From IMG/VR virus record IMGVR_UViG_3300009159_000035: DNA of 64,000 nucleotides; one strand, given 5' to 3'. The DNA is from a virus. The position numbers and the translations under genes were made by a program. Shown in pieces: positions 1,523-42,821 of the stretch. Below the pieces are notes generated by a model. It saw only the letters and a list, made by a program, of their open reading frames with translations. It was not told where the DNA came from and searched no databases. Position 1 is the stretch's first letter; every line of letters begins with the position of its first letter.

Positions 1523-2029
1523 ATGAAAGCACTAGTTAAAGGGTTTAGGCAGTTTATAAACGAGGAGCTTGACTCATTAGAGTCAGACCGTATTGAAATT
1601 GACCTAATCGCAGAATTGCCTGACCTATTTAGTCGAGCTGCACGAATTGGCAATGAAACTTCAGATGATGAGTATACTCATGATATTACAACTACCCTAA
1701 CCGCAATTAAATACAATACACCTGATGATATTGACCAGCTCAGAGAGTTGGGCCTGGCTCAAGGTGCATGGGAAACTGATCCAGACTGGATAGAGGCACT
1801 GGATGTACTAAATTACATAACTGATAAATTCATAGACGCTTCATTCTATACTGAGCCGGTCAAGATTAAAATTGTTTTTAAAGATCAAGAAAACGAATAT
1901 GGCGGCTATAGTGCACACGGTGGAGGTATGGACCGTACGGCATTTTGTGGAGCTAAAGAATTTAGCAAAGCTGGGGTGCTTGATACGTTTACCAGTTTAT
2001 TACGCTATACTGATATATTTGAATATTAA
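1523..2029 (+). CDS. putative internal head protein (CTS-like leader, LxELGL motif)
   Basis: MKALVKGFRQFINEE; DIDQLRELGL. Confidence 0.65.
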   Translation: MKALVKGFRQFINEELDSLESDRIEIDLIAELPDLFSRAARIGNETSDDEYTHDITTTLTAIKYNTPDDIDQLRELGLAQGAWETDPDWIEALDVLNYITDKFIDASFYTEPVKIKIVFKDQENEYGGYSAHGGGMDRTAFCGAKEFSKAGVLDTFTSLLRYTDIFEY

Positions 2030-2049
2030 TACCAAAATAAAAACAGAGA

Positions 2050-3666
2050 ATGACAAAGTATATTAAACTATTTGAAAATTTTATACCCGAAGCACGCGAA
2101 TCTGATTTAGAAGGTTTGGCTGATCTGGGACTTGGGCCAGCTCAGTTTGAATGGGAGGTAGAATACGATGAGGACATGCAAAATATTGAAAAGTCTGATA
2201 GGCAAGAAATTTATGATTATGAATCCCCAACCGGTGCTCACATTACTAGGGTTAAAGGTGTAATTGAAGCATTTCAAACCCAATTAGACATTTACTTTAG
2301 CAATGAAGATAAAATTCAAATGCATGTTAAATTCTCACAACACCCTGGAGACAAGGGTCGAGCCGCTTTTCAAGTTAAGCATAATAGTAAATGGCACTCA
2401 GTATTTAACCCAATAGTTAGTTATGATAAAGCTGAAGAATGGTTACAGAAATGTGAAGACTCAGGCTCAAGCGTTCAGCCAATATTCTATTATTACGAAG
2501 AGTTTTTAAAAGCCTTATCTAATGATGAAGATTACCAAATTTATTGGACAATGGAAAATCAAGGTTTAAATATTACAACCAATGAAATGATGAAGCCTGA
2601 CTATACTCGACTACAGTTATTCATTAGAGCTTTACGTGATTTACCAATTGACTCAAATATAATACTTAAAATACGCCAACTAATTAATAATCTGATAATT
2701 GATCCTTATCATAATAGGATTTCTATCTTAACTGAAGTAGACCGTGGCTTTTCGGATATTCCAGGTATTAGTGAATTGGTTGCAAAATTTAGCAGACCAC
2801 TTACTGAAGCTCGTGAGATTGAGCCACATGAAGAAGCCGAGTTAGCCAATATGAAAGACACAGTTAATGACATCAATGGCTTAATTGAATTGGGGTTAAT
2901 TGATGATTCAGGTTATCGAAAAGAGATGGTTGCTATCAGTAAAGCCTTTAATAAATTTGTTAAGGGTTTAAACTTAGATCTTAAAGATCAAGCTGATCTT
3001 GACTTGTTAAAATCGCTTGGCGAAAAAGCAGGCCAAGATTCATTAATGGGATTAAGTTTAGCTGGTGGAAAAGCACTCGCCACAAAAGGTTTACATCTGG
3101 TTTCAAGTCCAACTCAATTGGCTAATGGCTCATTGATATTTTCAGTTGATCCAAATTACAGACGTAGCGATGGCTGGGGTATTGGATTTTTTCCTGGCCC
3201 AAAGGTTATTCGGCGTATGACCCCAACACAAATTAATCTTGGGGTTTGGTCAAGAACTTTAGGCTCAATGGATATTGCAATAAAACATTTTAGAGACACC
3301 ACTAGTAATCTGGATTTTTATAATAAAGCCATGTTATGGGCAGCTGACAATATTGATTTTGACCATGCGGTAATGTATCCTGAAAAGCATGTGTGGAAAT
3401 ATTATAAAAAGAAAAAAGAAACCCGGGATAAACGAACTGAATCAGATGACTTACGTGTACAAGCAGACGCAATTATGTCAGAAGTTAAGTTTAGCCCGTG
3501 GCAATCACCAATCGGCCGGCTTGCTGCACTTGAAAAATATATTGAAGCTTGGAAATTAAGACTTAAAGCTGCTCAGCTTGATAATAACGAAAAAGCCATA
3601 ATTGATGCAAAGGACCAAATTGCACATATGGAACTTGATATTGCTAACTCAAAGAACCGCAATTAA
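2050..3666 (+). CDS. putative internal head protein, multi-module
   Basis: MTKYIKLFENFIPEAR; internal LTEAR; two Lx(D/E)LGL motifs. Confidence 0.65.
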   Translation: MTKYIKLFENFIPEARESDLEGLADLGLGPAQFEWEVEYDEDMQNIEKSDRQEIYDYESPTGAHITRVKGVIEAFQTQLDIYFSNEDKIQMHVKFSQHPGDKGRAAFQVKHNSKWHSVFNPIVSYDKAEEWLQKCEDSGSSVQPIFYYYEEFLKALSNDEDYQIYWTMENQGLNITTNEMMKPDYTRLQLFIRALRDLPIDSNIILKIRQLINNLIIDPYHNRISILTEVDRGFSDIPGISELVAKFSRPLTEAREIEPHEEAELANMKDTVNDINGLIELGLIDDSGYRKEMVAISKAFNKFVKGLNLDLKDQADLDLLKSLGEKAGQDSLMGLSLAGGKALATKGLHLVSSPTQLANGSLIFSVDPNYRRSDGWGIGFFPGPKVIRRMTPTQINLGVWSRTLGSMDIAIKHFRDTTSNLDFYNKAMLWAADNIDFDHAVMYPEKHVWKYYKKKKETRDKRTESDDLRVQADAIMSEVKFSPWQSPIGRLAALEKYIEAWKLRLKAAQLDNNEKAIIDAKDQIAHMELDIANSKNRN

Positions 3667-3676
3667 TTTTATATGT

Positions 3677-3702
3677 AAGGCTGGAAATTCCAGCCTTTTT
3701 TT
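3677..3702 (+). terminator. intrinsic terminator
   Basis: AAGGCTGGA-AAT-TCCAGCCTT plus T run. Confidence 0.8.
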
Positions 3703-3733
3703 ATGTGATGATAGTACATTAATTTAAAAACAA

Positions 3734-3952
3734 ATGGAAGCACAAACCAAACCCACTAAAACTCAAATTGCAATTGATCAAGCCAGATTAATAATGGAAA
3801 GCTTTGATGCAGGTGGAGCGCTAACCGTTGGTTATGACCAGTCTACTTATACCTTAACCTCTAATCAAATGTCAACCATTGCTGGAGCTCTGTATTTGGC
3901 AGATTGCGAAATTCAAGACATATTAGACAGACTATCAGTATTAGAGGATTAA
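3734..3952 (+). CDS. hypothetical protein
   Basis: 72-aa ORF. Confidence 0.6.
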   Translation: MEAQTKPTKTQIAIDQARLIMESFDAGGALTVGYDQSTYTLTSNQMSTIAGALYLADCEIQDILDRLSVLED

Positions 3953-3961
3953 TAAACAGAT

Positions 3962-4384
3962 ATGATTGCTGAAAACCGAAAGGCCAAATACGAATATGAA
4001 TTTATTGAGAGGTGGACCGCGGGTATTTCGCTAGTCGGGTCAGAGGTCAAGTCAGTTAAAGCCGGGCACCTTGATTTTACTGGGTCTTGGTGCGAATTAC
4101 GAAATGGAGAATGCTGGATTAGGGAACTGTATATTAAAGAATCAGCTACTGCTTTTAGCCACCAGGATAAACGAGAGAGGCGCTTACTCTTAACTAAAAA
4201 GGAACTAAAGAAGCTGGATAAGCTGATGGACAAGGGCCTCACGATCGTTCCAGTATCAATTCAGGTTAATCCAAAAGGTTTAATTAAGGTATCGATTGCC
4301 TTAGCCAAAGGTAAAAAACTTTGGGACAAGCGCCAAGTTATAAAAAATAGAGATGCTGACCGAGCTTTATTAGTTTCAGGTTAA
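3962..4384 (+). CDS. smpB: SsrA-binding protein SmpB
   Basis: IAENRKAKYEY, AGISLVGSEVKS, RRLLL, GLTIVP, AKGKKLWDKR. Confidence 0.95.
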   Translation: MIAENRKAKYEYEFIERWTAGISLVGSEVKSVKAGHLDFTGSWCELRNGECWIRELYIKESATAFSHQDKRERRLLLTKKELKKLDKLMDKGLTIVPVSIQVNPKGLIKVSIALAKGKKLWDKRQVIKNRDADRALLVSG

Positions 4385-4412
4385 ATAAATAAACCTTGAA
4401 ATAATAACAATT

Positions 4413-5261
4413 ATGAAATATATTAAACTATTTGAATCATTTATTGCAGAAGTTGCAGGTTATAAACTGGTTCCTGGCTCGTCAAAAGTTAAAGGTTGGG
4501 TTGATCAGGGTGGTGGTAGTTGGATGGTTAATTGCACATTAGGTAGAATTTATGTTGCAACAGTTGACACCCCAAATACTAGTAATGTTTCAGTATTTCT
4601 ACCAGCAAATGATCCTGCAATTATAACACAACTTAAAACAGCAGTGAAGGACCTTATTGTAACTGAACCGCCAATTGGCAAACCAAAGAGTATTACACTT
4701 GGTGGTACTACATGGAATTATGAAAAGATGCTTACGTGTATGCTAACTGATGTAACAACAGGCGATCCAATTCTATTATCAATTGCCAATGTATTAAATA
4801 AAGTGCAAACTGCAAATCCGGATCAACCAGCAGAGGCTAATAAACCGGTTACTAACTATACTGGTCTTAAACGTTCAACTACTGTTGATCCTAAAGTTAA
4901 AGAACTACAAACTGCAATTATTAATAGTGGAAATGCTAAGGCTGCTCTAGCACTCACTAAAGTGGGAGGAGCTACTGGAATTTTTGGTATTGAAACATCA
5001 TCGGCCATTGTACTTTTAATAGGTGCTCCTATTGACACAGTTATTGAAGAAATTACACCCGAGATTAATAAAAAACTTGCAGATAAACTATCAGCTGGTA
5101 AAAAATATGCAGCTGATTTCTTTGGTACAGTAGTTGATCCAACTGATCCAACCAAAAGAATTAACATTGCAGATGTAATTTCAAAGCAAAAGACGGAGGA
5201 TGATGCAAAGGCTCTTGCACCGGCTGGTATTACAACAACAACTACAACTAAAAAACCATAA
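4413..5261 (+). CDS. CTS-tagged protein with peptidoglycan-binding-like segment
   Basis: MKYIKLFESFIAE; VKELQTAI..GATGIFGIETSSAI resembles PG_binding_1. Confidence 0.55.
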   Translation: MKYIKLFESFIAEVAGYKLVPGSSKVKGWVDQGGGSWMVNCTLGRIYVATVDTPNTSNVSVFLPANDPAIITQLKTAVKDLIVTEPPIGKPKSITLGGTTWNYEKMLTCMLTDVTTGDPILLSIANVLNKVQTANPDQPAEANKPVTNYTGLKRSTTVDPKVKELQTAIINSGNAKAALALTKVGGATGIFGIETSSAIVLLIGAPIDTVIEEITPEINKKLADKLSAGKKYAADFFGTVVDPTDPTKRINIADVISKQKTEDDAKALAPAGITTTTTTKKP

Positions 5262-5325
5262 GTATTTAATTAAATTAGCCAAATCCTTTAATTAATTGGT
5301 ATTATTTAATTTAATAAACAATGTT

Positions 5326-5523
5326 ATGGAACCTACTTTAAATAAGCGTGAAATTTTTGCAGTTGCTGCAATGCAAGGAATGCTAATGGACCACACCTAT
5401 TCAGTTGAAATTATTCCTGAATTAGCAGTAAAAATTGCAGATAACCTAATTAATCAATTAGATCAAGCCAAGTCAGATACTGATCTTGAATCATTAACCA
5501 ACACATCTCACAATGATGAATAG
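5326..5523 (+). CDS. hypothetical phage protein
   Basis: KREIFAVAAMQGML motif; ATG at 5326 preferred. Confidence 0.6.
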   Translation: MEPTLNKREIFAVAAMQGMLMDHTYSVEIIPELAVKIADNLINQLDQAKSDTDLESLTNTSHNDE

Positions 5524-5719
5524 CCAAATAGTACATGGAATTCTAGAATATTTAATAATTGGAATTGGTTGGGCAATCTTAGTTGAATACTTAGATTCTC
5601 GACAGTCCTCTTCAAAACTAAAAAAGAGTATTACAACTCGGCTTATACTTGTATTGCTTTGGCCAGCTACTGTATTTATAGCAATAGTTAATGTATTAAG
5701 TAATCTAATAAAAAAGTAA
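5513..5719 (+). CDS. small membrane protein
   Basis: two hydrophobic segments. Confidence 0.6.
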   Translation: MMNSQIVHGILEYLIIGIGWAILVEYLDSRQSSSKLKKSITTRLILVLLWPATVFIAIVNVLSNLIKK

Positions 5720-5720
5720 T

Positions 5721-5930
5721 ATGTCAAAATCAATATTAGTACACGATAGATTTAGAACTAATGAATTAAGTGTACAACCAGGCGGATCAACTGTAACTGT
5801 TGAATATGCAGATGGCTCTAATCGATCCTATAATAAAGTTAAAAATCCAAGAGCTTATATTAATTCAATAATTAAAGATGAGACTATCTCTTCAGTAAAA
5901 GTAGACGGTCAACCTTATTGGGCCAGATAA
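5721..5930 (+). CDS. hypothetical protein
   Basis: 69-aa ORF, tightly packed with neighbours. Confidence 0.65.
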   Translation: MSKSILVHDRFRTNELSVQPGGSTVTVEYADGSNRSYNKVKNPRAYINSIIKDETISSVKVDGQPYWAR

Positions 5931-5952
5931 ATAAACTAAAGTTTTTTAATAA

Positions 5953-6549
5953 ATGCAATATCAAATTTTACAAGAGATTTATAAACATAAACCTGACTCA
6001 ATTCATACAGTTGTTAAGTCAGAATTTTTTACAAAATATGATTCATATGACTATGTATGGTCAGGCAATTGTTTTGAATGGTACTATGCACTAGGTAAAG
6101 CACTCCAGCCCAAATCATTTTTAGAAATTGGAGTAAGATTTGGCTTTAGCTTCCTACCAACCATGCTTGGTTCCGATTCATTGGACTATGCATTAGGTTG
6201 GGACCTTGAAACCTATGGTAATAACCAAATTGCACATACTAATATTAAAGAATATTATCCAGGTTCAGCAAACTGGGAAATTAAGCATATTGATTCTCAA
6301 CTAGAGACTGAGTTACCCCAATTCTTTGACCTGATCTCAATTGACGGGTGTCATGATTATGATTGCAAAGTTCACGATCTTAAATTATGTATTGGCAAAA
6401 CCAATTACGTAATATTAGATGACTATGATTATCATAAAGACGTAAGAGACTCAACTGATTTCTTTTTAAAGGAATACGCTGAGCACATTGAGTGGAATGC
6501 ATATATTCCAACATTCAGAGGAAGCCAATTAATTAAATTTAAAGTGTGA
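5953..6549 (+). CDS. class I SAM-dependent methyltransferase (Methyltransf_24-like)
   Basis: FLEIGVRFGFS, FDLISIDGCH, ILDDY. Confidence 0.85.
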   Translation: MQYQILQEIYKHKPDSIHTVVKSEFFTKYDSYDYVWSGNCFEWYYALGKALQPKSFLEIGVRFGFSFLPTMLGSDSLDYALGWDLETYGNNQIAHTNIKEYYPGSANWEIKHIDSQLETELPQFFDLISIDGCHDYDCKVHDLKLCIGKTNYVILDDYDYHKDVRDSTDFFLKEYAEHIEWNAYIPTFRGSQLIKFKV

Positions 6550-7220
6550 GATATTTAGATTTTTTTGAAGATGTATATTATATCAATTTAGATTATCGAA
6601 CAGACCGCCGTCTTTTATTTGAAGATCGGTCACAAGTAGTTGGTATAGAAGCAGTTAGATTTTCAGCAGCTCAACCGGCTGAAGAAGATTGCCCATTACT
6701 ACCTGGATCAGTTGGTGAAACTCGCCGTCGTTTTAAAGTTGGGTGTACAATGTCTCATCAAGGTGTTGTACAATTAGCAAAGTCTAGAGGGTTGGCTAAT
6801 GTATTAATATTTGAAGATGATTGTATATTTGAACCAGAGTTCAAGGAAGAGGCACAAAAATGTGTTGACGAACTTCGGCAAATTGATTGGGATATTCTTT
6901 ATTTTGGCGGAGAGGTTAACAATTATTGTAAATCAATATCTAAAAATTTAGTTACAGTAAATAATGGTGGCGTTTATTGCTGTCATGCATATGCAGTTAA
7001 CGCAAAGTTCTATGATAAGTTTTTAGCAATAAGCCCGCATCACACTGATATTATTGACATTTACTTATTAAATTATCCAGCAAACCAGCGTAACTACATC
7101 TTAAGTCGAAAACTATTAGCTTTGCAGGATCCAATTTTCTCAGATTTAAAAAATGGTCCTAGTGAATTGGCTAATGGCTATATGCTTAATAGCTGGAAAA
7201 AATTTATATCTAATGAATAA
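6546..7220 (+). CDS. glycosyltransferase family 25
   Basis: YYINLDYRTDR, GCTMSH, LIFEDD, HAYAVN. Confidence 0.85.
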   Translation: MRYLDFFEDVYYINLDYRTDRRLLFEDRSQVVGIEAVRFSAAQPAEEDCPLLPGSVGETRRRFKVGCTMSHQGVVQLAKSRGLANVLIFEDDCIFEPEFKEEAQKCVDELRQIDWDILYFGGEVNNYCKSISKNLVTVNNGGVYCCHAYAVNAKFYDKFLAISPHHTDIIDIYLLNYPANQRNYILSRKLLALQDPIFSDLKNGPSELANGYMLNSWKKFISNE

Positions 7221-8019
7221 ACTAAGTTTTGTTTGCACAACCTTTCGTCGATATCGTTGTGTTGAACGTATAATTGAACAATATCTACAACAGGATTATC
7301 GAAATTCAGAATTAATTATTTTTAATACTGACAAAGAAAATCCATTTAATTTGGACCCAAGTCTTGACTATTCAAATATTATTGTAGTTAACAATGAAAT
7401 TGACTATGAGACTCAACTGCCTTACACTAATCGTGGAGCTATTTGCAGAGATGCAGTGACTCATGCAACTGGAGACTATTTTATGCTAGCAGATGACGAT
7501 GACATTTATTTGCCATGGCATTTTAGACAAGCAGTTGAAGGAATTTTAGCAAATGGTAAAGACTCATGGAAACCTGAACAAAGCTTCTTTGCAACTTCAC
7601 ATAAGCTTGAAATGGTTCGCAATACACTGGAGGCATCAGTAATTGTTAAGATGAGCCGAATCAGAGAAATTGGATTTAGAACTGATGCAACTGGGTATGA
7701 AGGTTTAAGTTGGTATACTAAGCTCAGAGATGAGGGCCAATTGGACGAGCATAACCCTGAATACGTTCCATCATACTGCTTTAATTGGTCTGATCCAGCT
7801 GAACTTGCTGGGCATAAGCAGAGCGGAGATATTAATAACCCTAATAATTTTGATAATCATAAGCACAGCTCAAATGATATTTCAAATAAGCCTTTAAATC
7901 GCTGCGGCCTTGCAATTATAACCGAATGTTATTCAAAGTATTATAATTACCTACAATTAAACTCAAAAAGGTTTAATCCTATTATCTGGGATAAATATGT
8001 AAAACAATATATCAGTTAA
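7213..8019 (+). CDS. glycosyltransferase family 2
   Basis: LSFVCTT..QDY..ELII; GDYFMLADDDDIYLP; start moved to MNKLSF. Confidence 0.85.
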   Translation: MNKLSFVCTTFRRYRCVERIIEQYLQQDYRNSELIIFNTDKENPFNLDPSLDYSNIIVVNNEIDYETQLPYTNRGAICRDAVTHATGDYFMLADDDDIYLPWHFRQAVEGILANGKDSWKPEQSFFATSHKLEMVRNTLEASVIVKMSRIREIGFRTDATGYEGLSWYTKLRDEGQLDEHNPEYVPSYCFNWSDPAELAGHKQSGDINNPNNFDNHKHSSNDISNKPLNRCGLAIITECYSKYYNYLQLNSKRFNPIIWDKYVKQYIS

Positions 8020-8043
8020 ATAGTCGACTGATAAATAACATAG

Positions 8044-9204
8044 ATGAAACACTTAAAACCATATATATCATTTATTAATGAGGGTCGATTTTATAACGAG
8101 GAACTAAATCCAATCTTTTGGCAAGATAATACATTTAATCCAGAGGTTAGAACTAAACTATTACAAATAGCCCATGACTTTTATGCAGATTTAAAAGTTA
8201 CTGTCCCAATTGAAGATATTCAATTGACTGGCTCTTTAGCAAATTATAACTGGACAGAACATTCTGATCTTGATGTCCATGTCATAATGGATTTATCTAC
8301 AATTAATCCAGATCTTGAACTGGTTAAGACAGCAATGGAAGGTCTTAAAACTACCTGGAATCAAAGGCACCCAGTTACTATTCACGGATTTGATGTTGAA
8401 CTCTATGCTCAAGATATTAATCAATTACACTTGGCTTCTGGCTTATATTCATTAATGAAGAATGAATGGCTTAGAGAACCTGAGTTTAACCCACCAATTA
8501 TTGATCCTAAAGACGTTGATGTAAAAGCTGATTCATATATTTTTGCAATCAAGCAAATAATCAATGACTTAAAAGAGTCTAGTCCACAAGAAGCTAGAGA
8601 TATTATGGAAAGAGCGTCAGTTCTAAAGAAAAAGATTTCAAAATCAAGAGATGAACAGCTTGCAAATAAAGGCGGAGAATTCTCAATTGAAAATCTAGTA
8701 TTTAAAAAACTTAGAAATGAAGGTTGGATTGGTAAACTAATTGATATTAAAGCGCAAGCCTATTCCCGTATTTATTCTGAACCAACTGGTGCAATTGATT
8801 CAGAATTATCAACTGAAGTAGACGTGATTGATGAATCACTAGTTGGAAAAGGCAGTACAATATTGGTACTTGGGCCAGAGGTTGAAGGTGCTAAACGATT
8901 ATTCCTATTTCATGCTGATTGGTCAAAGCAGGTAGAAAGAAACGGTTGGACTGTAAATATGGTTGGTCTTACTGCACCAGTTTATATCATTCAAGAACAA
9001 GAAGGCCGATTAGTTGCAAAGGTTATATCGATAAGTCCAGGTAATTTAAAGAAATATGTAGGCCTTACTGACTATAATGTAGTCCTAAATTCCAAAACAA
9101 AAACTCCGTTTTGGCATCAAACTGTTAACTATACAAATGCTGCTGCTTTATTAAAAGATCTATCAGCCAGCATTCGTTCAATACCGGAAGTTACCTTTAA
9201 TTAA
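8044..9204 (+). CDS. Pol-beta superfamily nucleotidyltransferase with CTS-like leader
   Basis: MKHLKPYISFINE; LTGSLANYNW..SDLDVHV; FDVELY. Confidence 0.8.
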   Translation: MKHLKPYISFINEGRFYNEELNPIFWQDNTFNPEVRTKLLQIAHDFYADLKVTVPIEDIQLTGSLANYNWTEHSDLDVHVIMDLSTINPDLELVKTAMEGLKTTWNQRHPVTIHGFDVELYAQDINQLHLASGLYSLMKNEWLREPEFNPPIIDPKDVDVKADSYIFAIKQIINDLKESSPQEARDIMERASVLKKKISKSRDEQLANKGGEFSIENLVFKKLRNEGWIGKLIDIKAQAYSRIYSEPTGAIDSELSTEVDVIDESLVGKGSTILVLGPEVEGAKRLFLFHADWSKQVERNGWTVNMVGLTAPVYIIQEQEGRLVAKVISISPGNLKKYVGLTDYNVVLNSKTKTPFWHQTVNYTNAAALLKDLSASIRSIPEVTFN

Positions 9205-9256
9205 ACCTATGAATTTGCAACTATACCGAACCTCTTAACGTAAACGTATTTTACCG

Positions 9257-9285
9257 TGGGTCCTAGCAATAGAGACCCATTTTTT
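9257..9285 (+). terminator. intrinsic terminator
   Basis: TGGGTC..GACCCA plus T run. Confidence 0.65.
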
Positions 9286-9294: not shown

Positions 9295-9319
9295 GATTAG
9301 ACTCATTTAAAAAGACACT

Positions 9320-9682: not shown

Positions 9683-9706
9683 TACTTTTACAAATACAAT
9701 AAAAAT

Positions 9707-22029: not shown

Positions 22030-22584
22030 GTGAAAGCTAAGAAATTCAAACAGTTTGTAACTGAAGCAATTAAGCACAGATCTGCTAGTATTAGTGTTGA
22101 CGTAGAAGAGTGCGTATTTGTTATTAATGATACCATTTATTTTATGACACTTACCCTTGATGCAACAGTTGACCATGAACCAGCAGATTCGTCAGTTGGG
22201 CTATCTGCTTCAACTTATGTAGACGAATGGTGGGTAGCTAATATTCCCTTTTGTGAAAAATTCACAGATCCAGAAATTAACCAACAGGTATTTGCTGAAA
22301 TCTCTAATATTATAAATGATACTACTAGCCTTCGTGAATTAGACTTAGTTTCTGACTCGGTTGAAAAAGCAGTAAGTGACTATCTTTGGAAGGCATTAAA
22401 CTTGTATCCAATGGAAGAGGTACAGGCAACTGAATTATCTCAAGTAACCTCAATCCTAGCTAAACAAATTGATGACTCTAGTTATAAGAATTTGATATAT
22501 CAAGATTTAACTGGAAACTTTGACGAGCGAGCTACTAGGGAATTAGATAATGAAGTTGAACATTATGATAATGGTAGATGGTAA
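22030..22584 (+). CDS. putative internal head protein (CTS-like leader)
   Basis: MKAKKFKQFVTEA; DTTSLRELDL. Confidence 0.6.
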   Translation: MKAKKFKQFVTEAIKHRSASISVDVEECVFVINDTIYFMTLTLDATVDHEPADSSVGLSASTYVDEWWVANIPFCEKFTDPEINQQVFAEISNIINDTTSLRELDLVSDSVEKAVSDYLWKALNLYPMEEVQATELSQVTSILAKQIDDSSYKNLIYQDLTGNFDERATRELDNEVEHYDNGRW

Positions 22585-33941: not shown

Positions 33942-35087
33942 ATGGAAAACAACGACTCAGTTTGCTATGTAGCAAGAATTAACGAAATTAGGCCCATTGA
34001 TGGTGCAGACAACATTGAATTAGCAATTGTTGGAGGATGGAATTGTATTACTAAAAAAGGAGAGTATAATGCTGGCGATTTAATTGTAGTTGCTACAACT
34101 GATGCAGTCATTCCACAAGAATTATCAGACGTAATGAACGTGACCAATTACCTACGCAAAGGTCAACGAGTACGTACTGTAAAATTACGTGGAGTTTACT
34201 CTGAATGTTTAATTATTCCTTTTGCTTATTGTAAAGATGGTGCTAAATTAGCCAATACCAAATGGAACGAAGGAGAAGATATGATGTTGTTCTTGGGTAT
34301 TTTTAAGTACGAACCTCCAATTAAACAGATAAGACTATCTTCTGGTAAAAAGATTCGCTATCAAGATAACCCTAATTTCCATGTTTACTACAAGTTTCCT
34401 AACTTGAAGAATGTAGCTGGGATGTTTACTGAAGAGGATATGGTAGAAATTACTCGTAAAATCCACGGAACAAATGCTCGTTATGGTATTGTAAAGAAAA
34501 CTAAATTAGCAGTTTGGGACAAAGTTAAAAAATTCTTTGGATTGGCTGATAAATGGATTGATTATGAATTTGTAGTTGGGTCTCATAATGTTGAAAAGGG
34601 TTCTGACTCTCAAGGTTTTTACGATACAAATGTTTGGTACCAAATTTCGGACAAATATGAAATCAAAAAGAAGTTATGGGAATATGTTAAGAGCGTTGCA
34701 ATGGAACCTGAAATTGGAGCTGGTATTACAATCTATGGAGAAATTTATGGAGTCGGAATTCAAAAAAATTATGAATATGGGCTAAAGGAAATTGAATTTG
34801 TTGGCTTTGATGTCAAAGAGAATGGCGAATACTTAAGTCCAATCAATTCTAAACTTTTAATAAAGCATATTTTAGACTTACCATACGTTGAGATCCTATA
34901 TTCAGGTAATTGGTCTCAGGCAGTTCAAGATAAATTTGTATTTAATAATTTTATTGCAGGCACTAAAGTACCAGAAGAAGGAATTGTAATTAAGTACCAT
35001 ACTGGAGAAAGAAGTAAAGTTGCAAAAGTAATCAACCCTGACTATTTGATCTATGGCGAGAAACACGATATTGGAGACTCACACTAA
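33942..35087 (+). CDS. RNA ligase, DRB0094-like with N-terminal OB domain
   Basis: IRPIDGADNIE; KLRGVYSE; KIHGTN; YGEIYG; FDV; EEGIVIK; AKVIN. Confidence 0.9.
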   Translation: MENNDSVCYVARINEIRPIDGADNIELAIVGGWNCITKKGEYNAGDLIVVATTDAVIPQELSDVMNVTNYLRKGQRVRTVKLRGVYSECLIIPFAYCKDGAKLANTKWNEGEDMMLFLGIFKYEPPIKQIRLSSGKKIRYQDNPNFHVYYKFPNLKNVAGMFTEEDMVEITRKIHGTNARYGIVKKTKLAVWDKVKKFFGLADKWIDYEFVVGSHNVEKGSDSQGFYDTNVWYQISDKYEIKKKLWEYVKSVAMEPEIGAGITIYGEIYGVGIQKNYEYGLKEIEFVGFDVKENGEYLSPINSKLLIKHILDLPYVEILYSGNWSQAVQDKFVFNNFIAGTKVPEEGIVIKYHTGERSKVAKVINPDYLIYGEKHDIGDSH

Positions 35088-35093
35088 CCTCTA

Positions 35094-35444
35094 ATGATAA
35101 ATCTCAAGACACTAATAATAGGAATGTTATTTGGGCTTATAGCTCAAGTGCTAACCTTCTTTCAGCTACAAGGACAAATGCGATATGAGTGGTTTAAAAA
35201 CCACTATTGGGCAATAGTGTTAATGGGTATTCCAATATCAATGACGTTTATGTATTCGGTAAAGAATATGATAATAGCATTTGACGGTCAAATGTGGCCA
35301 TCTCGATTAATTGGTTTTAGCATAGGAGCAATCTCATTTACCTACCTAAGCTATGTTATATTTAATGAGCCTATTACCGCAAAGACATTAGTGTGCTTGG
35401 CATTAGCCGTTGCAATATTATTAATACAATTATTTTGGAAATAA
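35094..35444 (+). CDS. 4-TM small membrane protein (DMT/SMR-like)
   Basis: Four hydrophobic helices; FNEP. Confidence 0.55.
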   Translation: MINLKTLIIGMLFGLIAQVLTFFQLQGQMRYEWFKNHYWAIVLMGIPISMTFMYSVKNMIIAFDGQMWPSRLIGFSIGAISFTYLSYVIFNEPITAKTLVCLALAVAILLIQLFWK

Positions 35445-35445
35445 A

Positions 35446-35913
35446 ATGGAAGAAAATAAATTAGTTAGAATTTACCTAGACGATGTTAGAACACCAATTG
35501 AAAAGGATTGGATAGTTGTTAGAAATTATCAGGAGTTCAAGGATAGAGTCAATGAAATTGGAATAACGAATATTCATATTATCTCGTTAGATCACGACTT
35601 GGGTGACTCAGCAATGTCGGAGTATTTTACAAATGTAAGTCCAAATTATAAATTAGACTATAATAATATTACAGAAAAAACTGGAATGGACTGTACCAAA
35701 TGGTTAGTTAATAAGTTCTATGACGAAAATCCAAAACGGCTTGATATGAGTCGTCAAGATAAACGCAATGTGCCTATTAAGTTTCCAGAAGTTTACGTAC
35801 ACTCAGCAAATCCAATTGGGTCAGCTAATATGATGGGGTATTTTAATAATTTCTTTATGAATGAAGGCGAGCCTCAAAATTGTGTACGCGTTCAGATACC
35901 TCATACAGTTTAA
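35446..35913 (+). CDS. cyclic-phosphate-processing receiver-like domain protein
   Basis: YLDDVR, ISLDHDLG, TGMDC, VHSANP. Confidence 0.8.
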   Translation: MEENKLVRIYLDDVRTPIEKDWIVVRNYQEFKDRVNEIGITNIHIISLDHDLGDSAMSEYFTNVSPNYKLDYNNITEKTGMDCTKWLVNKFYDENPKRLDMSRQDKRNVPIKFPEVYVHSANPIGSANMMGYFNNFFMNEGEPQNCVRVQIPHTV

Positions 35914-35936
35914 GTTGGTATAATAATTATAAGATT

Positions 35937-36014
35937 GCCCTCTTGGCGGAATTGGTAGACGCGCTAGACTTAGGATCTAGTCTTCGGGTAAGAGTTCGAG
36001 TCTCTTAGAGGGTA
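35937..36014 (+). tRNA. tRNA-Leu(UAG)
   Basis: GCCCTCT/AGAGGGT-A; CTAGA-CTTAGGA-TCTAG. Confidence 0.93.
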
Positions 36015-36034
36015 CAAATTGGTATAATATAATT

Positions 36035-36742
36035 ATGAAATTAGTAGAATATAACGAAGATAACCTCATCACCTATACCCTATATGAAGTTGCTCCAAAA
36101 ATCTATGTAGTAGAAGCAGCCGATGATTATGCTAGAGCAATGCTATTTGTTAGAGCTCAAGAATATTACGAATCATCTTATCCTGAATTTAGAAAAAAGA
36201 ACTTTTGTATTTTTGAATATATGAATAAGTACCGTAAAGAAAGAGGCACTAAATATTTTGGATATACTAAAGATTGGAGTGGCTATAATATTCCAAGTGA
36301 TTCTCTTGAATCATGCCTTAATGGACTAGATGCTAGTAAAGTTTTAACTACTCCATATGATATTCTTATGCATGCAATATATGCAACAATTCGTAAGCAC
36401 CAACCTCGTGGAAAGTTTTATATATTGGGAGTAGATGATATTAAGTCGCAAGTAATGGATCATGAACTTTCACATGCACTATTCTATACAAATAAAGAAT
36501 ACAAGGCTGAAATGATGGAGTTAATTTTATTGTTAAAATCAAATGTATATAATCAATTAGAAGCATACTTATCTCAAATGGGTTATGTTAGGCAAGTTAT
36601 GGTTGACGAAATCCATGCATATCTTTCAACTGGCTTGATTAAGCCAATGGACCGAGCTAGAGGTTCAATTGCCGCATCAAAGAAATTTAAAAAAGTTTTT
36701 AAAGAATACAGGAAAAAATTTAATTTAAAACTTGATGTATAA
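36035..36742 (+). CDS. HExxH-containing hypothetical protein
   Basis: RAQEYYES; HELSHAL; DEIHAY. Confidence 0.7.
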   Translation: MKLVEYNEDNLITYTLYEVAPKIYVVEAADDYARAMLFVRAQEYYESSYPEFRKKNFCIFEYMNKYRKERGTKYFGYTKDWSGYNIPSDSLESCLNGLDASKVLTTPYDILMHAIYATIRKHQPRGKFYILGVDDIKSQVMDHELSHALFYTNKEYKAEMMELILLLKSNVYNQLEAYLSQMGYVRQVMVDEIHAYLSTGLIKPMDRARGSIAASKKFKKVFKEYRKKFNLKLDV

Positions 36743-36938
36743 ATTTGAATTAGTTGATTCCGAAATTAAAAAATTCGAGAAGTGGAAAAAGAAACAAAAA
36801 AAGAAGAACCAATTCATGCCAACTGCTGGTGAAAGATGGACTTTTATGTTTACTCCAACTGGAATTGGTACAGTAGTTGAAGTAAAAGACCAAACTACTG
36901 GAGACGTACTTGACTTAACTGATTGGGACTTATGGTAA
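36735..36938 (+). CDS. hypothetical phage protein
   Basis: FTPTGIG..DLTD. Confidence 0.65.
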   Translation: MYKFELVDSEIKKFEKWKKKQKKKNQFMPTAGERWTFMFTPTGIGTVVEVKDQTTGDVLDLTDWDLW

Positions 36939-37249
36939 ATTATGAAACTTGTAACTGTGGTAAAAAAGCAACCTGGCTATATGCGCCTTCAACGGATTCT
37001 ACAGAGAATCCTTTTCACTGTGATGATTGCGTTCCTCGCGGTTGTTCTTGTAATAGCTACCATACTGACCCAAACGCTTATCATCCTCCTCTCGAAAATC
37101 CTGAATTACCGGAAGGCATTGAAAACAAAGATTGGCACTGGAAGAATAAAGAAAAAACTGAATGGTGCCGATTAGATGATGAGGGCCGAGAATATCCATG
37201 TTGTGAATTTTGGTATGACGAAAATGGCTATGAAATTGAAGAAAAATAA
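36932..37249 (+). CDS. Cys-rich hypothetical protein
   Basis: CNCG, CDDCVPRGCSC, PCCEF. Confidence 0.65.
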   Translation: MVNYETCNCGKKATWLYAPSTDSTENPFHCDDCVPRGCSCNSYHTDPNAYHPPLENPELPEGIENKDWHWKNKEKTEWCRLDDEGREYPCCEFWYDENGYEIEEK

Positions 37250-37259
37250 ATTATAGATT

Positions 37260-37946
37260 ATGAGAACTTTAGTAATATCAGATATACACATTGGATCTAA
37301 AGGTTGCAATACTGAAGCAATTACAATGTTATTAAAAACAGAAACATTTGATCGACTGATTTTAGTTGGCGATATTATTGATGGATGGCTCTTTACTAAA
37401 TATAAAAAGTTTTCTCAAGACCATACTAACTTAATAAGAAAATTTCTAAAGATTTCAAAGAGAATGGAAGTTATTTGGATAGCTGGCAATCATGATGAGT
37501 TCCTAAGAAAATATTTGCCAGTTGATATTGGTAATATTATAGTAGTTGATGAATGGACTGAAGATGGAATATGGTTTTGTCATGGAGACAAATACGATGG
37601 AATTGTTAAGATGCGCTGGTTGGGAATGTTAGGTTCAATTGGCTATGACTTGGCAATTGAACTAGACCGATTTATAAAAAGATTTGGTAAAAAAACAAGT
37701 TTGTCAAAATACTTAAAGGATAATGTAAAGGCCGCTGTTTCATTTATGGTTGATTTTGAAAATGAAATGGTTCGTCAAGCAAAAAAGAGAAACTGTCATA
37801 CTGTTGTATGCGGCCACATTCATACTCCAGCAGACAAAGAAATAGACGGAGTTCGCTACTTAAATACTGGCGACTGGATTGAAAATACTTCATATGTTAT
37901 ATATGAGTCAACTAAAAACACTAACTGGCTAACCTTATTTAGATAA
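37260..37946 (+). CDS. LpxH-like metallophosphoesterase
   Basis: ISDIHIG, VGDIIDGW, GNHD, HGD, CGHIH, NTGDW. Confidence 0.85.
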   Translation: MRTLVISDIHIGSKGCNTEAITMLLKTETFDRLILVGDIIDGWLFTKYKKFSQDHTNLIRKFLKISKRMEVIWIAGNHDEFLRKYLPVDIGNIIVVDEWTEDGIWFCHGDKYDGIVKMRWLGMLGSIGYDLAIELDRFIKRFGKKTSLSKYLKDNVKAAVSFMVDFENEMVRQAKKRNCHTVVCGHIHTPADKEIDGVRYLNTGDWIENTSYVIYESTKNTNWLTLFR

Positions 37947-38662
37947 TGATTAATGATTTAACTATTATAATTCCATGCTATAATGAAGAGGCATATATTG
38001 GTAGAACTCTTAGAGCTATATTAAGACAGAAAGAATGTGCTGGTGTTAAAATAATTATAGCAGATGCTGGATCAACCGATCAAACCGTTAATATAATTAA
38101 TTCAATAGCTCTAAAATTTAATCTAAATGTTGAAATAATTAAAGGAGGGTTGCCTGCAATTGGCCGAAACGCTGGTGCTCAAATATCAACTACTTCATTA
38201 TTGCTATTTCTAGATGCTGATATTACATTTACACATAAAAGAGTTATTATTGAATCGGTTAATACGCTCATTGCTGGTAATTATGCAGTACTTGGAACAA
38301 ACCCTAAATATAAAGGAGAATTTGATTTACGAGCAAATTTTATATTTTGGATAAATGGATTAACTACTTGGTATCTTTCTAAAACTAAACCATTTGCAAT
38401 TGGCGGATTTATGTTGATACGTAGATTTATTTTTAATAACCTTGGCGGATTTGACGAGCTTGCACATCAAAGTGAAGACTGGTTATTAAGCAGAAAAATA
38501 AAGCCTACTAAATTTAAACTTATACCTAACCTGATTACACAGGACAATCGCCGATTTAAAAAATATGGATACCTTAATATGATTTGGCTAGTTATTAAAA
38601 ATTGGCTGAATCGTAATAATGAATTGCATTTTTATAAAGACCAAAAATATTGGCATAACTAA
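37946..38662 (+). CDS. glycosyltransferase family 2
   Basis: IIIPCYNEE, DAGSTD, GRNAGA, FLDAD, GGFDE..ED. Confidence 0.9.
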   Translation: MINDLTIIIPCYNEEAYIGRTLRAILRQKECAGVKIIIADAGSTDQTVNIINSIALKFNLNVEIIKGGLPAIGRNAGAQISTTSLLLFLDADITFTHKRVIIESVNTLIAGNYAVLGTNPKYKGEFDLRANFIFWINGLTTWYLSKTKPFAIGGFMLIRRFIFNNLGGFDELAHQSEDWLLSRKIKPTKFKLIPNLITQDNRRFKKYGYLNMIWLVIKNWLNRNNELHFYKDQKYWHN

Positions 38663-38664
38663 CT

Positions 38665-40401
38665 ATGACTAAACTCCAAGAGGAATTTGAACAATTTGTA
38701 AAAGGAAAACACCCAGGACTGGAGTTTCGGCCTCAACAAAAAGAGGCAATACTTGATATAATCTCTGCATATAACAATGATCCTAATGGTATCTACTTAT
38801 TAGATGCCCCAACTGGTTCAGGTAAATCAGTAATTGCAATGGTGTTTGCAGACTTTCTTGCATTTAAAGGCAACCGTGGTTATATTCTTGCATCTGATCT
38901 TTCGCTACATGAACAATACGTAAAGGACTTTCGTAAACTACAGTTATGGAATTGGGGTAATATCAAGGGTGTTGATAATTATAAGTGCGTAGTTAATGAC
39001 GAAAAATTTTCAATAGGCGAATGTAAAAGTAAAGGAACTTCATATGAAGCTGCTGAATCATTACCATGTTTTAAACAATGTGGGTATTTAACATCACGTA
39101 AAAAATCAATTAAATCTCCAATTGCACTACTTACTTATCCATATGCCTTAATTCAAAGAAATTATGTTGAGGATAAGCAGCAAGGCAAAGGTAAAGGCTC
39201 TCCATTTCCACAAAGAGATTTTGTAGTTTGCGATGAGGCTCATAAATTATTAGATATTGTACAGAGCCACTTTAGTCCAATAGTATCAAAGGAAATTGTA
39301 AAGAAGGCTGAAAAATTATTGGAGGGACTTGGCGATATTGGTCAAGCTGTACCAAAAATAAATCTTGAAAGACTTGAGAAAATAATAGACCGCATTTATG
39401 CAGATGATGATCAAGCAAATTTACTTAAGCTATTAAGAGAAGTTACTAAAGTACTTGGCGAAGTTATGAAAGCAACTGGCCCTCTTAGAGAAAATGCCTC
39501 AGCTGACTTTATTGAAGGTAGCGTTCCACTTGAATGGCTTGCGGTTTTTAACCTAGCCGACTGGTGTAAAGACGTGCACTGTAAACTTGAAGACTATTGC
39601 GAAATTGTTGGAAAGGTTGGCGTTGAAAAGCTAATTAAAAACCCTGGAGAAAAAGCCTTGGTTTTTAACTGTATTGACGAGTACTACTTATTAAAAAAGC
39701 ACTTCTATACTAAATTTGGGTTTAAGTTGTTAATGACGGCTACTATGGGTAACCCTAGTGACTTCATGAGAAATCACGGTATCAAGTCAGCCAAGTACTT
39801 TAAAATAGAGAGCCATTTTAATTGGGAAAAGTCGCCAATCATTTTTTATCCAGGTAAAAAAATGTCAACCCGATTTCTGGTTGATAATATGCAATGGGCG
39901 ATTGATACGGTAACCCGAATTGTCCGAGAGCATTCTGAGGACTCTGGGATCATTCATTCCGGTTCATATGAATTGAATACTAAGATTTGGACAGGGCTTC
40001 CTAAAGACGTTAAGAAACGCATTTTACTCTATAAAGGTTCTGAAGAAAAGGACCAGGCTCTAAAGAAAATGAGCAAAAAGAAAGGGCTTGTATTAATGGG
40101 GCCTTCTATTTTAGAAGGTTTAAATATGGTAGACGACCAGAGCAGATTTCAAATTTTTTTAAAGGTTCCGTATCCACATCTTGGCGATAAGTATGTTGCT
40201 GCTAAACTGGAATATTCGCAAGCTTGGTATAACTGGAAGACTGCAATTGGGGTATTGCAAGGAGTCGGTCGATCAATCCGTACGCCAGATGATTGGGCTA
40301 TTACTTATTTACTAGATGGGTGCTTTGCTGATCTTATGAAGTCAGCTGGCGATCAATTTCCACCAGAATTTAAAGCCAGACTGAAAGTAGAGTATAAATA
40401 A
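38665..40401 (+). CDS. DinG/XPD-like SF2 helicase
   Basis: APTGSGKS, Cys cluster, DEAH, TAT, KVPYP, QGVGRSIR. Confidence 0.9.
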   Translation: MTKLQEEFEQFVKGKHPGLEFRPQQKEAILDIISAYNNDPNGIYLLDAPTGSGKSVIAMVFADFLAFKGNRGYILASDLSLHEQYVKDFRKLQLWNWGNIKGVDNYKCVVNDEKFSIGECKSKGTSYEAAESLPCFKQCGYLTSRKKSIKSPIALLTYPYALIQRNYVEDKQQGKGKGSPFPQRDFVVCDEAHKLLDIVQSHFSPIVSKEIVKKAEKLLEGLGDIGQAVPKINLERLEKIIDRIYADDDQANLLKLLREVTKVLGEVMKATGPLRENASADFIEGSVPLEWLAVFNLADWCKDVHCKLEDYCEIVGKVGVEKLIKNPGEKALVFNCIDEYYLLKKHFYTKFGFKLLMTATMGNPSDFMRNHGIKSAKYFKIESHFNWEKSPIIFYPGKKMSTRFLVDNMQWAIDTVTRIVREHSEDSGIIHSGSYELNTKIWTGLPKDVKKRILLYKGSEEKDQALKKMSKKKGLVLMGPSILEGLNMVDDQSRFQIFLKVPYPHLGDKYVAAKLEYSQAWYNWKTAIGVLQGVGRSIRTPDDWAITYLLDGCFADLMKSAGDQFPPEFKARLKVEYK

Positions 40402-40423
40402 CCCTAAATACTAGGTAACTTTA

Positions 40424-40819
40424 ATGTCTATACTTAACTGGGAATTATATCACCAAACTAAAGAAGTTAGTAAAATCTATACTACTTCAATATTTGAAGC
40501 AAAGAAACCTGAAACCTTTGAACAATTTGCAAGTAATCGACTTGCTGGAGCAATTAAGATTGCTGAAACTACCAAAGCAAAAGGCGGAGACTCTCTATTA
40601 ACATATCAACACTATAAAGTTAAGTTACCGTATTATAAAAAGGCGGCAGCTGGTAAATTTAATATCCAAGAAGCTAAAGCTGAACTAAAAAAATTACACA
40701 CCTACCTTCATGCAATCATTGATAAATTTGAGGCAAAGGGTCAAACTCCATTTCAACAAGTAATGGGAAAGATTGAAGTAGTTGGTGAATTAATAATTAA
40801 ATACAATGAAACACATTAA
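40424..40819 (+). CDS. hypothetical late protein
   Basis: late motif upstream; IFEA possible processing site. Confidence 0.6.
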   Translation: MSILNWELYHQTKEVSKIYTTSIFEAKKPETFEQFASNRLAGAIKIAETTKAKGGDSLLTYQHYKVKLPYYKKAAAGKFNIQEAKAELKKLHTYLHAIIDKFEAKGQTPFQQVMGKIEVVGELIIKYNETH

Positions 40820-41621
40820 ATTATTTAGCGGTTGGATAAATGAGGCATTAACCGCTGATCAAATAGCTAATCAAATTCAAGCCGCAATTTCTGGCAATGG
40901 AACAGAAGAATTTGATTTAAGTACTGCAATTAAGTTAATTCCAGATGCAGAAACAATGGTTAAAGTAAATCAAGCTTTAAAATTGGGAATGCAAACTAAG
41001 AGTTGGGAATATGGTAGTATAGGTGATGCAGTTAATGGCGAACTTGGTATATTTGATCAAACTTATAAAGATCAAATATCTGCACATATTAAGAATATAA
41101 GCGCAAAAAAATACTCAGGATCAGTTAGTAATACTCAGTCAACCATTGCTGCTAATAAAGCAGTATTAGTTGGTGGACTAAATGATCGGCCCGGAGATAA
41201 ACCAACTGCTGAACAAACCTCTATATTAAGTAAATCAACCGGTCTTCCATTAATGAAAGGGTTTGATTATGATGAAAGTGATGATACCATATTGAGGTAT
41301 TTAAAATCTAACCCAGGTATTCCAGTGTTTTTATTTAGTGCCGGCTGTAAAAAAGCAGAAGTTTTAAGTAACTCAGCTTATGTTAATAAAAACCAGTTAT
41401 ATATTATTGAACCATTTGCCTCAAGTAAAACTACAAAAGACATTATTAATAAGGCCGTTAATAATGGAGTTCCTGCAAAGAATGTGTATGTTGGGAAAAA
41501 CTCATCAAGAGGGTACGGTGTGGTTAGCGGAACCTCTGATTCCAAAGCAAAACTTCATTGGGACGCACTTGTATCCGTTGGTAATATGGTATCTACTGAG
41601 TTAAATAAAAGTACTATTTAA
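40806..41621 (+). CDS. CTS-tagged protein with annexin-like repeat and alpha/beta-hydrolase-like domain
   Basis: MKHIKLFSGWINEA; AISGNGTEE; VFLFSAG; C-terminal HW. Confidence 0.5.
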   Translation: MKHIKLFSGWINEALTADQIANQIQAAISGNGTEEFDLSTAIKLIPDAETMVKVNQALKLGMQTKSWEYGSIGDAVNGELGIFDQTYKDQISAHIKNISAKKYSGSVSNTQSTIAANKAVLVGGLNDRPGDKPTAEQTSILSKSTGLPLMKGFDYDESDDTILRYLKSNPGIPVFLFSAGCKKAEVLSNSAYVNKNQLYIIEPFASSKTTKDIINKAVNNGVPAKNVYVGKNSSRGYGVVSGTSDSKAKLHWDALVSVGNMVSTELNKSTI

Positions 41622-41632
41622 AAAACCAAAAT

Positions 41633-42205
41633 ATGAAACACATTAAATTATTTGAAGATTTTGATCTAGATAAATTTCTAGAAAATCCTGATAAAGAATT
41701 ATCAAATGATGATTCTCCTGAAATTAATATTGGCAGTTATGTTGACTCGTATAGAGGTAAGGGTCGAGTTGTTGATATGGACGATAGTTTTGCAACAGTT
41801 GAATTACATAATTCAAAAGGAAACCGGGTAAAGGTTCCACTATTTGCTCTAACTAAAATTTCAAGTAATACAATTGAAACAGCTAAAGTAGGAGATTCTA
41901 AAGCAGAACTTGCTGAGCTTGTTAAACAAGGTACCGAATATTTAGATTATCTTAAATCAGTTGAAGACTATTCAGATGATGAAGACTCTTTTAGTGGTCA
42001 GATTAATTTTGATACTCTATTAAGTTTTATTCAAGATACAGTAGTTGAGGTAATTTCAATTAAGAATAATGATACGGCATACGATTCATATAATGAATAT
42101 CATCATTTAATTAATATTGTTGCATCACTAGCTGATGTAATTCAAACAGTAAGACCTGATTTAACTGATGAAGTTGATGCAGCTCTTGAAAATTTTCCAA
42201 GCTAA
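41633..42205 (+). CDS. putative internal head protein (CTS-like leader)
   Basis: MKHIKLFEDF; SH3/KOW-like segment. Confidence 0.6.
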   Translation: MKHIKLFEDFDLDKFLENPDKELSNDDSPEINIGSYVDSYRGKGRVVDMDDSFATVELHNSKGNRVKVPLFALTKISSNTIETAKVGDSKAELAELVKQGTEYLDYLKSVEDYSDDEDSFSGQINFDTLLSFIQDTVVEVISIKNNDTAYDSYNEYHHLINIVASLADVIQTVRPDLTDEVDAALENFPS

Positions 42206-42206
42206 T

Positions 42207-42821
42207 ATGAAAGCCTTAAGTTTTAATCAATTCATAAATGAAAATCAAGATAACGATGATTTAAAACAGTTAGCTGATCTTGGACTGTATACTCCAATTG
42301 CTGAAATTGTATATCAAACATTAATAGAAAAAACAGACTTAGCCGATTTTATGACACTAGAAGGGGATTCTATTCTGTTTAGATATGATTGGATTATGGA
42401 GCCAGCAGACTCATTAGCAGTAATGGGTTTTGATGAAGCAGAAAGTCGCGACATCATTCGTAAATTAGGTATGGGCCCAAACGACTTTTTTGGACTAATT
42501 GATATAGTTTTAGATTTTAATAAAATGACAATTAGTGTTCACTCTGATATTAATCAAAGACCTCTTAATTTTGAAGATGAGTATTCGCATGAAGGCCCAA
42601 TGTCTAACTATGTAACCGTATTAGATGACTATTATGGAAAAGCGTCAACTGGCCGCCCAGCCGGTCCAAAAGAGATAGCAGATGAACTCGTAAGGATGTT
42701 TTTGGTATGGAGTTATCAAGAAGACCCATTTGGAATTTGGATAAATATTAATACAATTATTGAAAAAGAGATTAAGAATAGGCTTGAAAGAGCAAATCAT
42801 GAATCTAGTGAAGATTCTTAG
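42207..42821 (+). CDS. putative internal head protein (CTS-like leader, LADLGL motif)
   Basis: Start moved to MKALSFNQFINE; DDLKQLADLGL. Confidence 0.65.
   Translation: MKALSFNQFINENQDNDDLKQLADLGLYTPIAEIVYQTLIEKTDLADFMTLEGDSILFRYDWIMEPADSLAVMGFDEAESRDIIRKLGMGPNDFFGLIDIVLDFNKMTISVHSDINQRPLNFEDEYSHEGPMSNYVTVLDDYYGKASTGRPAGPKEIADELVRMFLVWSYQEDPFGIWININTIIEKEIKNRLERANHESSEDS

Follow-up and report, generated by a model that had tools for sequence, protein, structure and literature searches.

The 64,000-nucleotide stretch of viral DNA analysed here (IMG/VR record IMGVR_UViG_3300009159_000035, hereafter the window) contains many open reading frames (ORFs) that begin with the peptide h-K-x-F-x-Q-F-[IV]-N-E (h, hydrophobic). 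This peptide, called here the tag, resembles the capsid targeting sequence (CTS) of phage T4, and some of the proteins that bear it carry a second short motif, D-x-x-x-L-x-[DE]-L-G-L, which is the subject of this work. In the six-frame translation of the window the pattern has exactly four matches, all of them in three tagged ORFs, against 0.0065 matches expected from the residue frequencies of the 21,003-residue proteome and no more than one in each of 2000 shuffles. The motif is genuine, not a product of chance, and probably has a function. All motif carriers in the window possess the N-terminal tag and have isoelectric points (pI) between 4.26 and 5.31, and a BLASTP comparison of these proteins with each other at E<=1e-5 gave no matches.

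The locations of the motif copies and of their carriers are collected in Table 1. An earlier note on this DNA had listed five such peptides in four tagged proteins, and all five indeed translate as claimed, in frame on the + strand, with four of the quoted ranges beginning one codon before the Asp; likewise, two copies follow the predicted cleavage site as closely as the note had it, beginning three to four residues past the last Glu of the tag. The strict motif is nevertheless shared by three ORFs rather than four, since at 22318 the Gly that is invariant elsewhere is an Asp, and this site thus falls outside the pattern. An intact motif is found at the equivalent place in an orthologue and a paralogue from two related genomes (G002 and G001, respectively), which argues that this site is a decayed copy and not a chance resemblance.

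Table 1. Motif copies and the tagged proteins that carry them in the window
Feature	Position	Strand	Remarks
Carrier, 168 aa, pI 4.29	1523..2029	+	Tag 1535-1564; no known family
Motif copy 1	1727..1756	+	Residues 69-78 of ORF 1523-2029; internal; kept in 6 orthologues (alignment A2)
Carrier, 538 aa	2050..3666	+	Tag 2062-2091; relic internal tag 2785-2808; two tagged modules fused
Motif copy 2	2104..2133	+	Residues 19-28 of ORF 2050-3666; three residues past the tag's last Glu
Motif copy 3	2869..2898	+	Residues 274-283 of ORF 2050-3666; opens the C-terminal module; Gly invariant (alignment A1)
Carrier of degenerate copy, 184 aa, pI 4.31	22030..22584	+	Tag near 22039-22065
Degenerate copy	22318..22347	+	Residues 97-106 of ORF 22030-22584; Gly-9 replaced by Asp
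Carrier, 204 aa, pI 4.26	42207..42821	+	Tag near 42216-42242; open frame also permits a start at 42168
Motif copy 4	42258..42287	+	Residues 18-27 of ORF 42207-42821; four residues past the tag

The 538-residue protein, which holds two of the copies, has a composite origin. Its C-terminal half exists as a separate protein of about 299 residues in dozens of metagenomic relatives, where the tag is followed by about 20 residues and then by the motif. The relic tag in the middle of the long protein reads K-F-S-R-P-L-T-E, then Ala, and aligns with the N-terminal tag of these stand-alone homologues; we therefore regard the 538-residue protein as a fusion of two tagged modules, in which both motif copies stand shortly behind a tag-type cut site. 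The fusion protein may be cut in two.

Anatomy of the motif and its association with the tag

The window matches a 66.5-kb IMG/VR virus fragment, for which CheckV gives a completeness of 25%, implying a genome of roughly 260 kb. Its close relatives, ranked by identity in the 538-residue protein, are G001 (79%), the ENA contig piece L021 (64%) and G002 (60%); the comparison further included G003 (253 kb, 94%-complete) and the more distant G004-G007. Altogether 43 copies of the motif were examined across all genomes. Their conserved core consists of hydrophobic residues at positions 2, 5, 8 and 10 and an invariant Gly at position 9, while position 11 is mostly a small residue, chiefly Ala, and position 12 mostly Asp, Glu or Pro. 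The acidic residues at positions 1 and 7, which formed part of the pattern as originally described, turned out to be peculiar to the version found in the window genome and lie outside this core.

All copies are situated 2-460 residues behind an N-terminal tag, and none of the 43 is found at the C-terminus. Nineteen of them start 2-11 residues past the last Glu of the tag; for a further five the distance is 17-24 residues, and all others are internal. Several carriers hold 2-4 copies. The 12 residues upstream of the motif have a net charge of -2, and the carriers, with a median pI of 4.41, are more acidic than the remaining tagged ORFs (5.37) and the untagged ones (5.80). The motif is predicted to form a short amphipathic helix of roughly two turns that ends at the Gly. 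In the AlphaFold2 (AF2) model of the 538-residue protein, copy 2 appears as an isolated helix (residues 19-25) within a segment, residues 1-55, whose predicted local distance difference test (pLDDT) score is below 50, and it is not predicted to pack on the domain of its protein. Copy 3 begins in the last turns of a helix spanning residues 259-280 and passes through Gly-282 into the next loop.

Beyond the motif itself, an alignment (A5) of leaders from the window ORFs 2050 and 42207 and from loci L012, L017, L018, L021 and L064 reveals in many of them an aromatic-x-aromatic-acidic segment about 5-7 residues past the G-L, which looks like the first strand of the next domain. Judging from this alignment, a distantly related beta-rich domain may be common to several families of carriers. 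Another observation concerns ORF 1060-1443, which at window positions 1117-1140 encodes the run M-N-D-M-N-D-M-G at the place of an intact motif in its G002 orthologue. A run of the same kind, H-M-G-D-M-N-D-M-G, is conserved in a paralogous family of G002 and L021 with no dialect change of the kind described below; such runs may be diverged relatives of the motif or a third signal.

The tag is found on 18 ORFs in the window genome and on 32 in G003. Its last Glu is invariant across all genome groups and belongs to an L/I-x-E sequence, the cut motif of gp21-type proteases, and prohead proteases of the T4 gp21 type (Peptidase_S77) are indeed encoded by the relatives (E 1e-9 in G003, E 3e-14 in G007). 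The G003 enzyme (G003:64429-66411, locus L070; 660 aa) comprises the S77 prohead protease domain fused to about eleven tag-like repeats of 14 residues, which make up a scaffold. In the window, the late-promoter-like element ATAAATAA(C) lies at most 60 nt upstream of 12 of the 18 tagged ORFs, as opposed to 11 of the 81 that lack a tag (p=1e-5). The + strand has 26 occurrences of it and the - strand 5; it is found e.g. before the + strand ORFs 1060, 1523, 4413, 8044, 22030, 22661, 24901, 44519, 45540 and 60004. The tag is presumably a true capsid-targeting signal. A tag-like peptide is also found at the start of the MoxR-type ATPase encoded at 45540-47102.

To quantify the association, a hidden Markov model (HMM) of the motif was built from 33 copies and applied at a threshold of at least 8 bits in combination with an HMM of the tag. 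In the training genomes it identified the motif in 24 of 92 tagged and 5 of 614 untagged ORFs, and in the held-out genomes G004-G007 in 8 of 49 tagged and none of 470 untagged ORFs (p=4e-9). The specificity of the motif for tagged proteins, which the earlier note had noticed in the window, therefore extends to genomes that took no part in building the model, with the addition that only about a quarter of the tagged proteins carry it. The two points on which the note had let its proposal depend came out in its favour: the motif is far rarer in untagged than in tagged ORFs, and it is kept in orthologues, even in some that are only 38-66% identical overall.

A search with the combined tag and motif profile against 1.8 billion protein representatives retrieved about 30 further clusters with a matching leader layout. 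Among the metagenomic sequences, P0138 (382 aa), P0122 (615 aa) and P0128 (368 aa) display 3-4 evenly spaced motif-like copies, in P0138 every 90 residues. Phage LR756501 (735 kb), of which a 40-kb sample was scanned, has tags in that sample but not the motif, and the R-L-x-x-L-G-L pattern was at background level in the DNA of LR756501 and of Chryseobacterium phage MA9V-1. The same LR756501 contains (L073:2177-4184) five tandem small genes that start with tag-like M-I-K-K-F-x-h-F-E, behind which they share a different peptide, D-P-Y-G-E-E-x-W; this, too, is a layout of a tag followed by a second motif.

Genome-specific dialects of the motif

Comparison of the motif across genomes revealed that its sequence tracks the genome and not the protein family, and that its place is kept in orthologues. 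The copies in the window and in G001 conform to D-[IL]-x-[QG]-L-x-[DE]-L-G-L, those in G002 to N-h-x-R-L-x-x-L-G-[IV], usually followed by Ala, those in G003 to [NR]-h-x-R-L-x-x-L-G-L, and those in L021 to h-x-[QY]-M-x-x-[YFM]-G-[LYF]. The R-L-x-x-L-G-L form is seen in G003-G007; compared to this Arg-4 form, the window version has Gln or Gly at position 4 and Asp at position 1, with the core h-x-x-L-x-x-L-G-L retained. In each genome 6-10 copies follow the dialect, among them internal ones and ones with clear orthologues elsewhere; only contig L074 enters the comparison with a single carrier. Even the internal copies at residues 69, 97, 274 and 472 obey the dialect of their genome.

The change is most conspicuous in L021. 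All six of its copies, five of which lie in proteins whose orthologues are clearly recognizable in the window, G001 or G002, exhibit Met at position 5 and an aromatic residue or Met at position 8, where the orthologues have Leu at both. The orthologues of the 42207 protein keep the position of the motif and switch its dialect (alignment A4), and one of them, P0112 from an unlinked contig, possesses the L021-type version. Overall, copies from different families within one genome share on average 6.36 of 11 residues, compared to 4.20 for orthologues across genome groups and 3.91 for unrelated copies, and the similarity observed within genomes was not attained in any of 10,000 shuffles of the labels. 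At the same time, identical motif residues are encoded by identical codons with a frequency of 0.36, versus 0.35 expected from codon usage. Such chance-level codon identity indicates that it is the protein sequence on which the likeness among copies is kept up, and that neither homogenisation of the DNA nor gene conversion accounts for it.

This concerted change of the motif supports a shared, co-evolving constraint, of which the simplest form would be one partner. Since a dialect is common to all carriers of a genome, it suggests that they have a single binding partner in common; and since the consensus of the tag is identical in every genome group, with no dialect, while the motif changes, the surface shared by the carriers would not be that of whatever reads the tag.

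Possible roles of the motif

We propose that the motif is a selected short linear helix that docks the tagged carriers onto one phage-specific partner, a proposal to which we give an even chance. According to this scenario, the tag would be cut off after its terminal Glu and the motif would stay on the mature protein, because nearly half of the copies start within a few residues of the cut. Each carrier would then dock by the motif helix onto one partner that co-evolves with the motif; this appears the most likely mechanism because all copies in a genome have changed together, in contrast to the tag. Such a partner would not be the component that reads the tag, which would make the motif a second-tier address. 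We infer that it is located in the prohead or head, as a component of the scaffold core, the inner capsid surface or the portal. A head component is the most economical guess because the motif goes together with a cleavable head tag, because the gp21-type protease of the relatives is joined to a scaffold built of tag-like repeats, and because the tagged genes lie behind the late-promoter-like ATAAATAA.

Of the second-tier docking helix suggested in the earlier note, the specificity for tagged proteins, the conservation and the predicted helix thus hold and are now joined by the concerted change, while the acidic positions do not belong to the core, docking, packaging and sorting are putative, and the partners proposed there (capsid interior, ejection apparatus, ClpC or MoxR) are guesses. 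Several points weigh against our proposal. The partner is putative, as are its binding and the nature of the constraint; moreover, the reading of the tag as a signal of capsid cargo is unproven. The relatives compared are few and mutually related, and the tag-motif statistics overstate their independence: G005, G006 and G007 share orthologues, so that the effective sample is smaller than the counts. The motif is also lacking in some orthologues (e.g. when ORFs 1060 and 59043 are compared to those of G002, L021 and G003), and hence must have been gained and lost and be dispensable for those proteins. Finally, a purely structural role is conceivable for some copies, because the helix that includes copy 3 is longer, is predicted with moderate confidence and belongs to a folded module, and because neither AF2 model is strong at the motif. 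The mechanism with a shared partner is therefore best described as plausible but unproven, and may as well be wrong as right.

The structural role can be generalized to a module without any external partner, in which the Gly-capped helix forms the structural start, as the first helix of a small unit that precedes the mature domain. Helices are commonly terminated by a Gly C-cap with a hydrophobic residue behind it, and the loose form of the pattern can be found in untagged proteins as well, topoisomerase II among them; copy 3 would fit this explanation, as the helix in which it lies (pLDDT 77-80) is followed by a second helix, and the model of the 42207 protein, which at a pLDDT of 47.5 is too weak to judge packing, also has a helix right behind the motif. 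However, the sequences downstream of the motif are unrelated among the carriers, no packing of copy 2 on its own domain is predicted, and such a module gives no reason why Leu-5 should have been replaced by Met and Leu-8 by Tyr or Phe in all six L021 copies and in the P0112-type orthologue. We consider this explanation unlikely.

A serious, though likewise unlikely, alternative is that the helices bind each other; we rate it neither better nor worse than the capping module. The carriers would associate through a short coiled-coil-like bundle, so that the acidic cargo co-assembles and the copies co-evolve with each other, which predicts concerted change just as well as an external partner does. 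The presence of 2-4 copies in several proteins would agree with such self-association, and so would the closest local look-alike of the motif, the D-A-V-N-x-x-Q-L-K-x-L-G-L unit of trimeric autotransporter adhesins (PF05662), which we discuss below. Yet the helix, at 8-9 residues, is very short to sustain a stable bundle, the oligomeric state is hypothetical, and PF05662 has no match to the phage segments even at E<=10.

It is considerably less probable that the motif is directed at the host, i.e. that after ejection the carriers bind one host protein via the helix and the dialects follow the hosts. The carriers are small and very acidic, like many phage inhibitors, and the dialects differ between phages whose hosts are possibly different; but the strict tie to a cleavable tag and the placement right behind it indicate a role in assembly, and it is hard to imagine 6-10 unrelated proteins of one phage acting on a single host protein. 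Still fainter is the chance that the motif serves as a second cleavage site of the prohead protease, with a T4-like cut at L-x-E, or as an exosite whose helix positions the enzyme. L-x-E-L is indeed present in three of the five window sites, and relatives possess the S77 protease. Nonetheless, two window copies have Asp at position 7, where Gln, Gly, Lys or Asp is found in the relatives, and this lack of conservation of the Glu makes a cut site unlikely; nor are h-x-E sequences enriched upstream of the internal copies (0.79 vs 0.58 per 25 residues). As for the shuffling of a functionless 5' cassette of tag and motif between genes by gene conversion, the frequent placement directly behind the tag and the gain and loss between orthologues would suit it, but it is largely refuted by the chance-level codon identity; the internal copies that follow the dialect and the persistence of the motif in diverged orthologues also speak against it, and we assign it the slightest probability of all.

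Genome context, comparable systems and implications

Apart from the tagged ORFs, the window (G+C content 34.5%) encodes T4-type topoisomerase II subunits, a helicase, an RNA ligase, a MoxR ATPase with a vWA partner and a ClpC-like ATPase; the 66.5-kb fragment contains no head genes. The PHROG profile matches the ClpC-like ATPase (55052-57031) only from position 164 onward, and the protein thus seems to lack the usual N-terminal domain. Comparison of the topoisomerases points to huge uncultured phages of the LR7565xx series as the nearest named relatives (about 53% identity), followed by Xanthomonas, Chryseobacterium and T4-like phages, and one homologue comes from a named source, the uncultured Caudovirales phage UFOVP1604. 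A tblastn search of 50,697 phage records with the carrier module gave no match. Positions 1-323 of the window are outside the IMG/VR record that holds the rest, and their G+C content, judged by eye, seems higher than that of the adjoining phage sequence.

The carriers could not be assigned to known families. Whole proteins had no match in Pfam or PHROGs, and ten motif-centred segments (47-54 residues) compared with Pfam at E<=10 gave only noise, although the HMMER filters can drop very weak matches; no minidomains of the helix-Gly-hydrophobic type, such as SAP, HeH, Rho_N or UBA, were among the Pfam matches of these ten segments at E<=10. A profile search of the PDB with alignment A1 gave nothing significant and a Foldseek search of the PDB nothing at E<=0.001, and a wide VIA-align search matched residues 460-538 to generic helical hairpins only. 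Nor did the papers searched describe a second motif on capsid-tagged cargo.

A close precedent is provided by the internal proteins of T-even phages, which are described as having nothing but a conserved CTS in common, by which they are encapsidated into the scaffolding core (PMC3012670). The CTS of T4, present in IPI-III and Alt, is likewise a short peptide common to otherwise unrelated proteins, and the tag that accompanies our motif ends in a T4-type h-x-E site and belongs to phages whose relatives encode a gp21-type protease. Unlike the CTS, however, the motif described here lies downstream of the cut site, is found on only a fraction of the tagged proteins, has a helix-Gly-cap form and varies between genomes. 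T4 is not known to have anything like this second motif. Tiered loading of the head is exemplified by the Dar system of phage P1, where some internal proteins enter only through others; its signals are unrelated in sequence to our motif, and no shared short second motif is known to have been described for Dar.

A different analogy is offered by family-1 encapsulins, whose targeting peptides fit into hydrophobic pockets on the inner face of a shell of the HK97 fold (PMC10960027). These peptides (G-S-L-x-I-G-S-L-K; in T. maritima G-G-D-L-G-I-R-K) resemble the motif in being short, borne by the cargo and built of two or three hydrophobic residues around a Gly, and even the local D-L-G-I/L core looks alike, which need not mean common descent. 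They are C-terminal and bound in an extended form, whereas the motif is N-proximal or internal and predicted to be helical. By analogy, the encapsulin peptides offer a model of how the motif might dock on the capsid interior.

In sequence, the nearest local look-alike is the YadA_stalk unit mentioned above, which is repeated 26-40 times in adhesins, where it forms a short Gly-ended helix that begins a three-stranded coiled coil. One adhesin, P0136, was retrieved in the tag and motif profile search and contains 27 copies of PF05662. Since these proteins are bacterial surface fibres without a tag, and the A-V-N of their unit is absent from all phage copies of the motif, we treat the resemblance as a lead for oligomerisation only.

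It is tempting, though on balance doubtful, to extend our proposal to a two-part cargo code, in which a universal cleavable tag with a conserved reader would be combined with a helix in the dialect of the lineage, recognized by a fast-co-evolving receptor in the head, and would sort the acidic subclass by site or by order of ejection. The dialect helix could also act as a compatibility code that excludes the cargo of co-infecting relatives. The choice of head cargo in phages has been understood only for the single T4 tag; what is new here is the comparison of a motif across genomes, which uncovered its concerted, genome-specific change. If our proposal is true, a second, separable signal exists and head cargo is sorted in tiers, and the motif marks a definable subclass of likely injected proteins in widespread uncultured freshwater jumbo phages. 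The dialects could then provide orthogonal packaging handles for foreign proteins in capsids.

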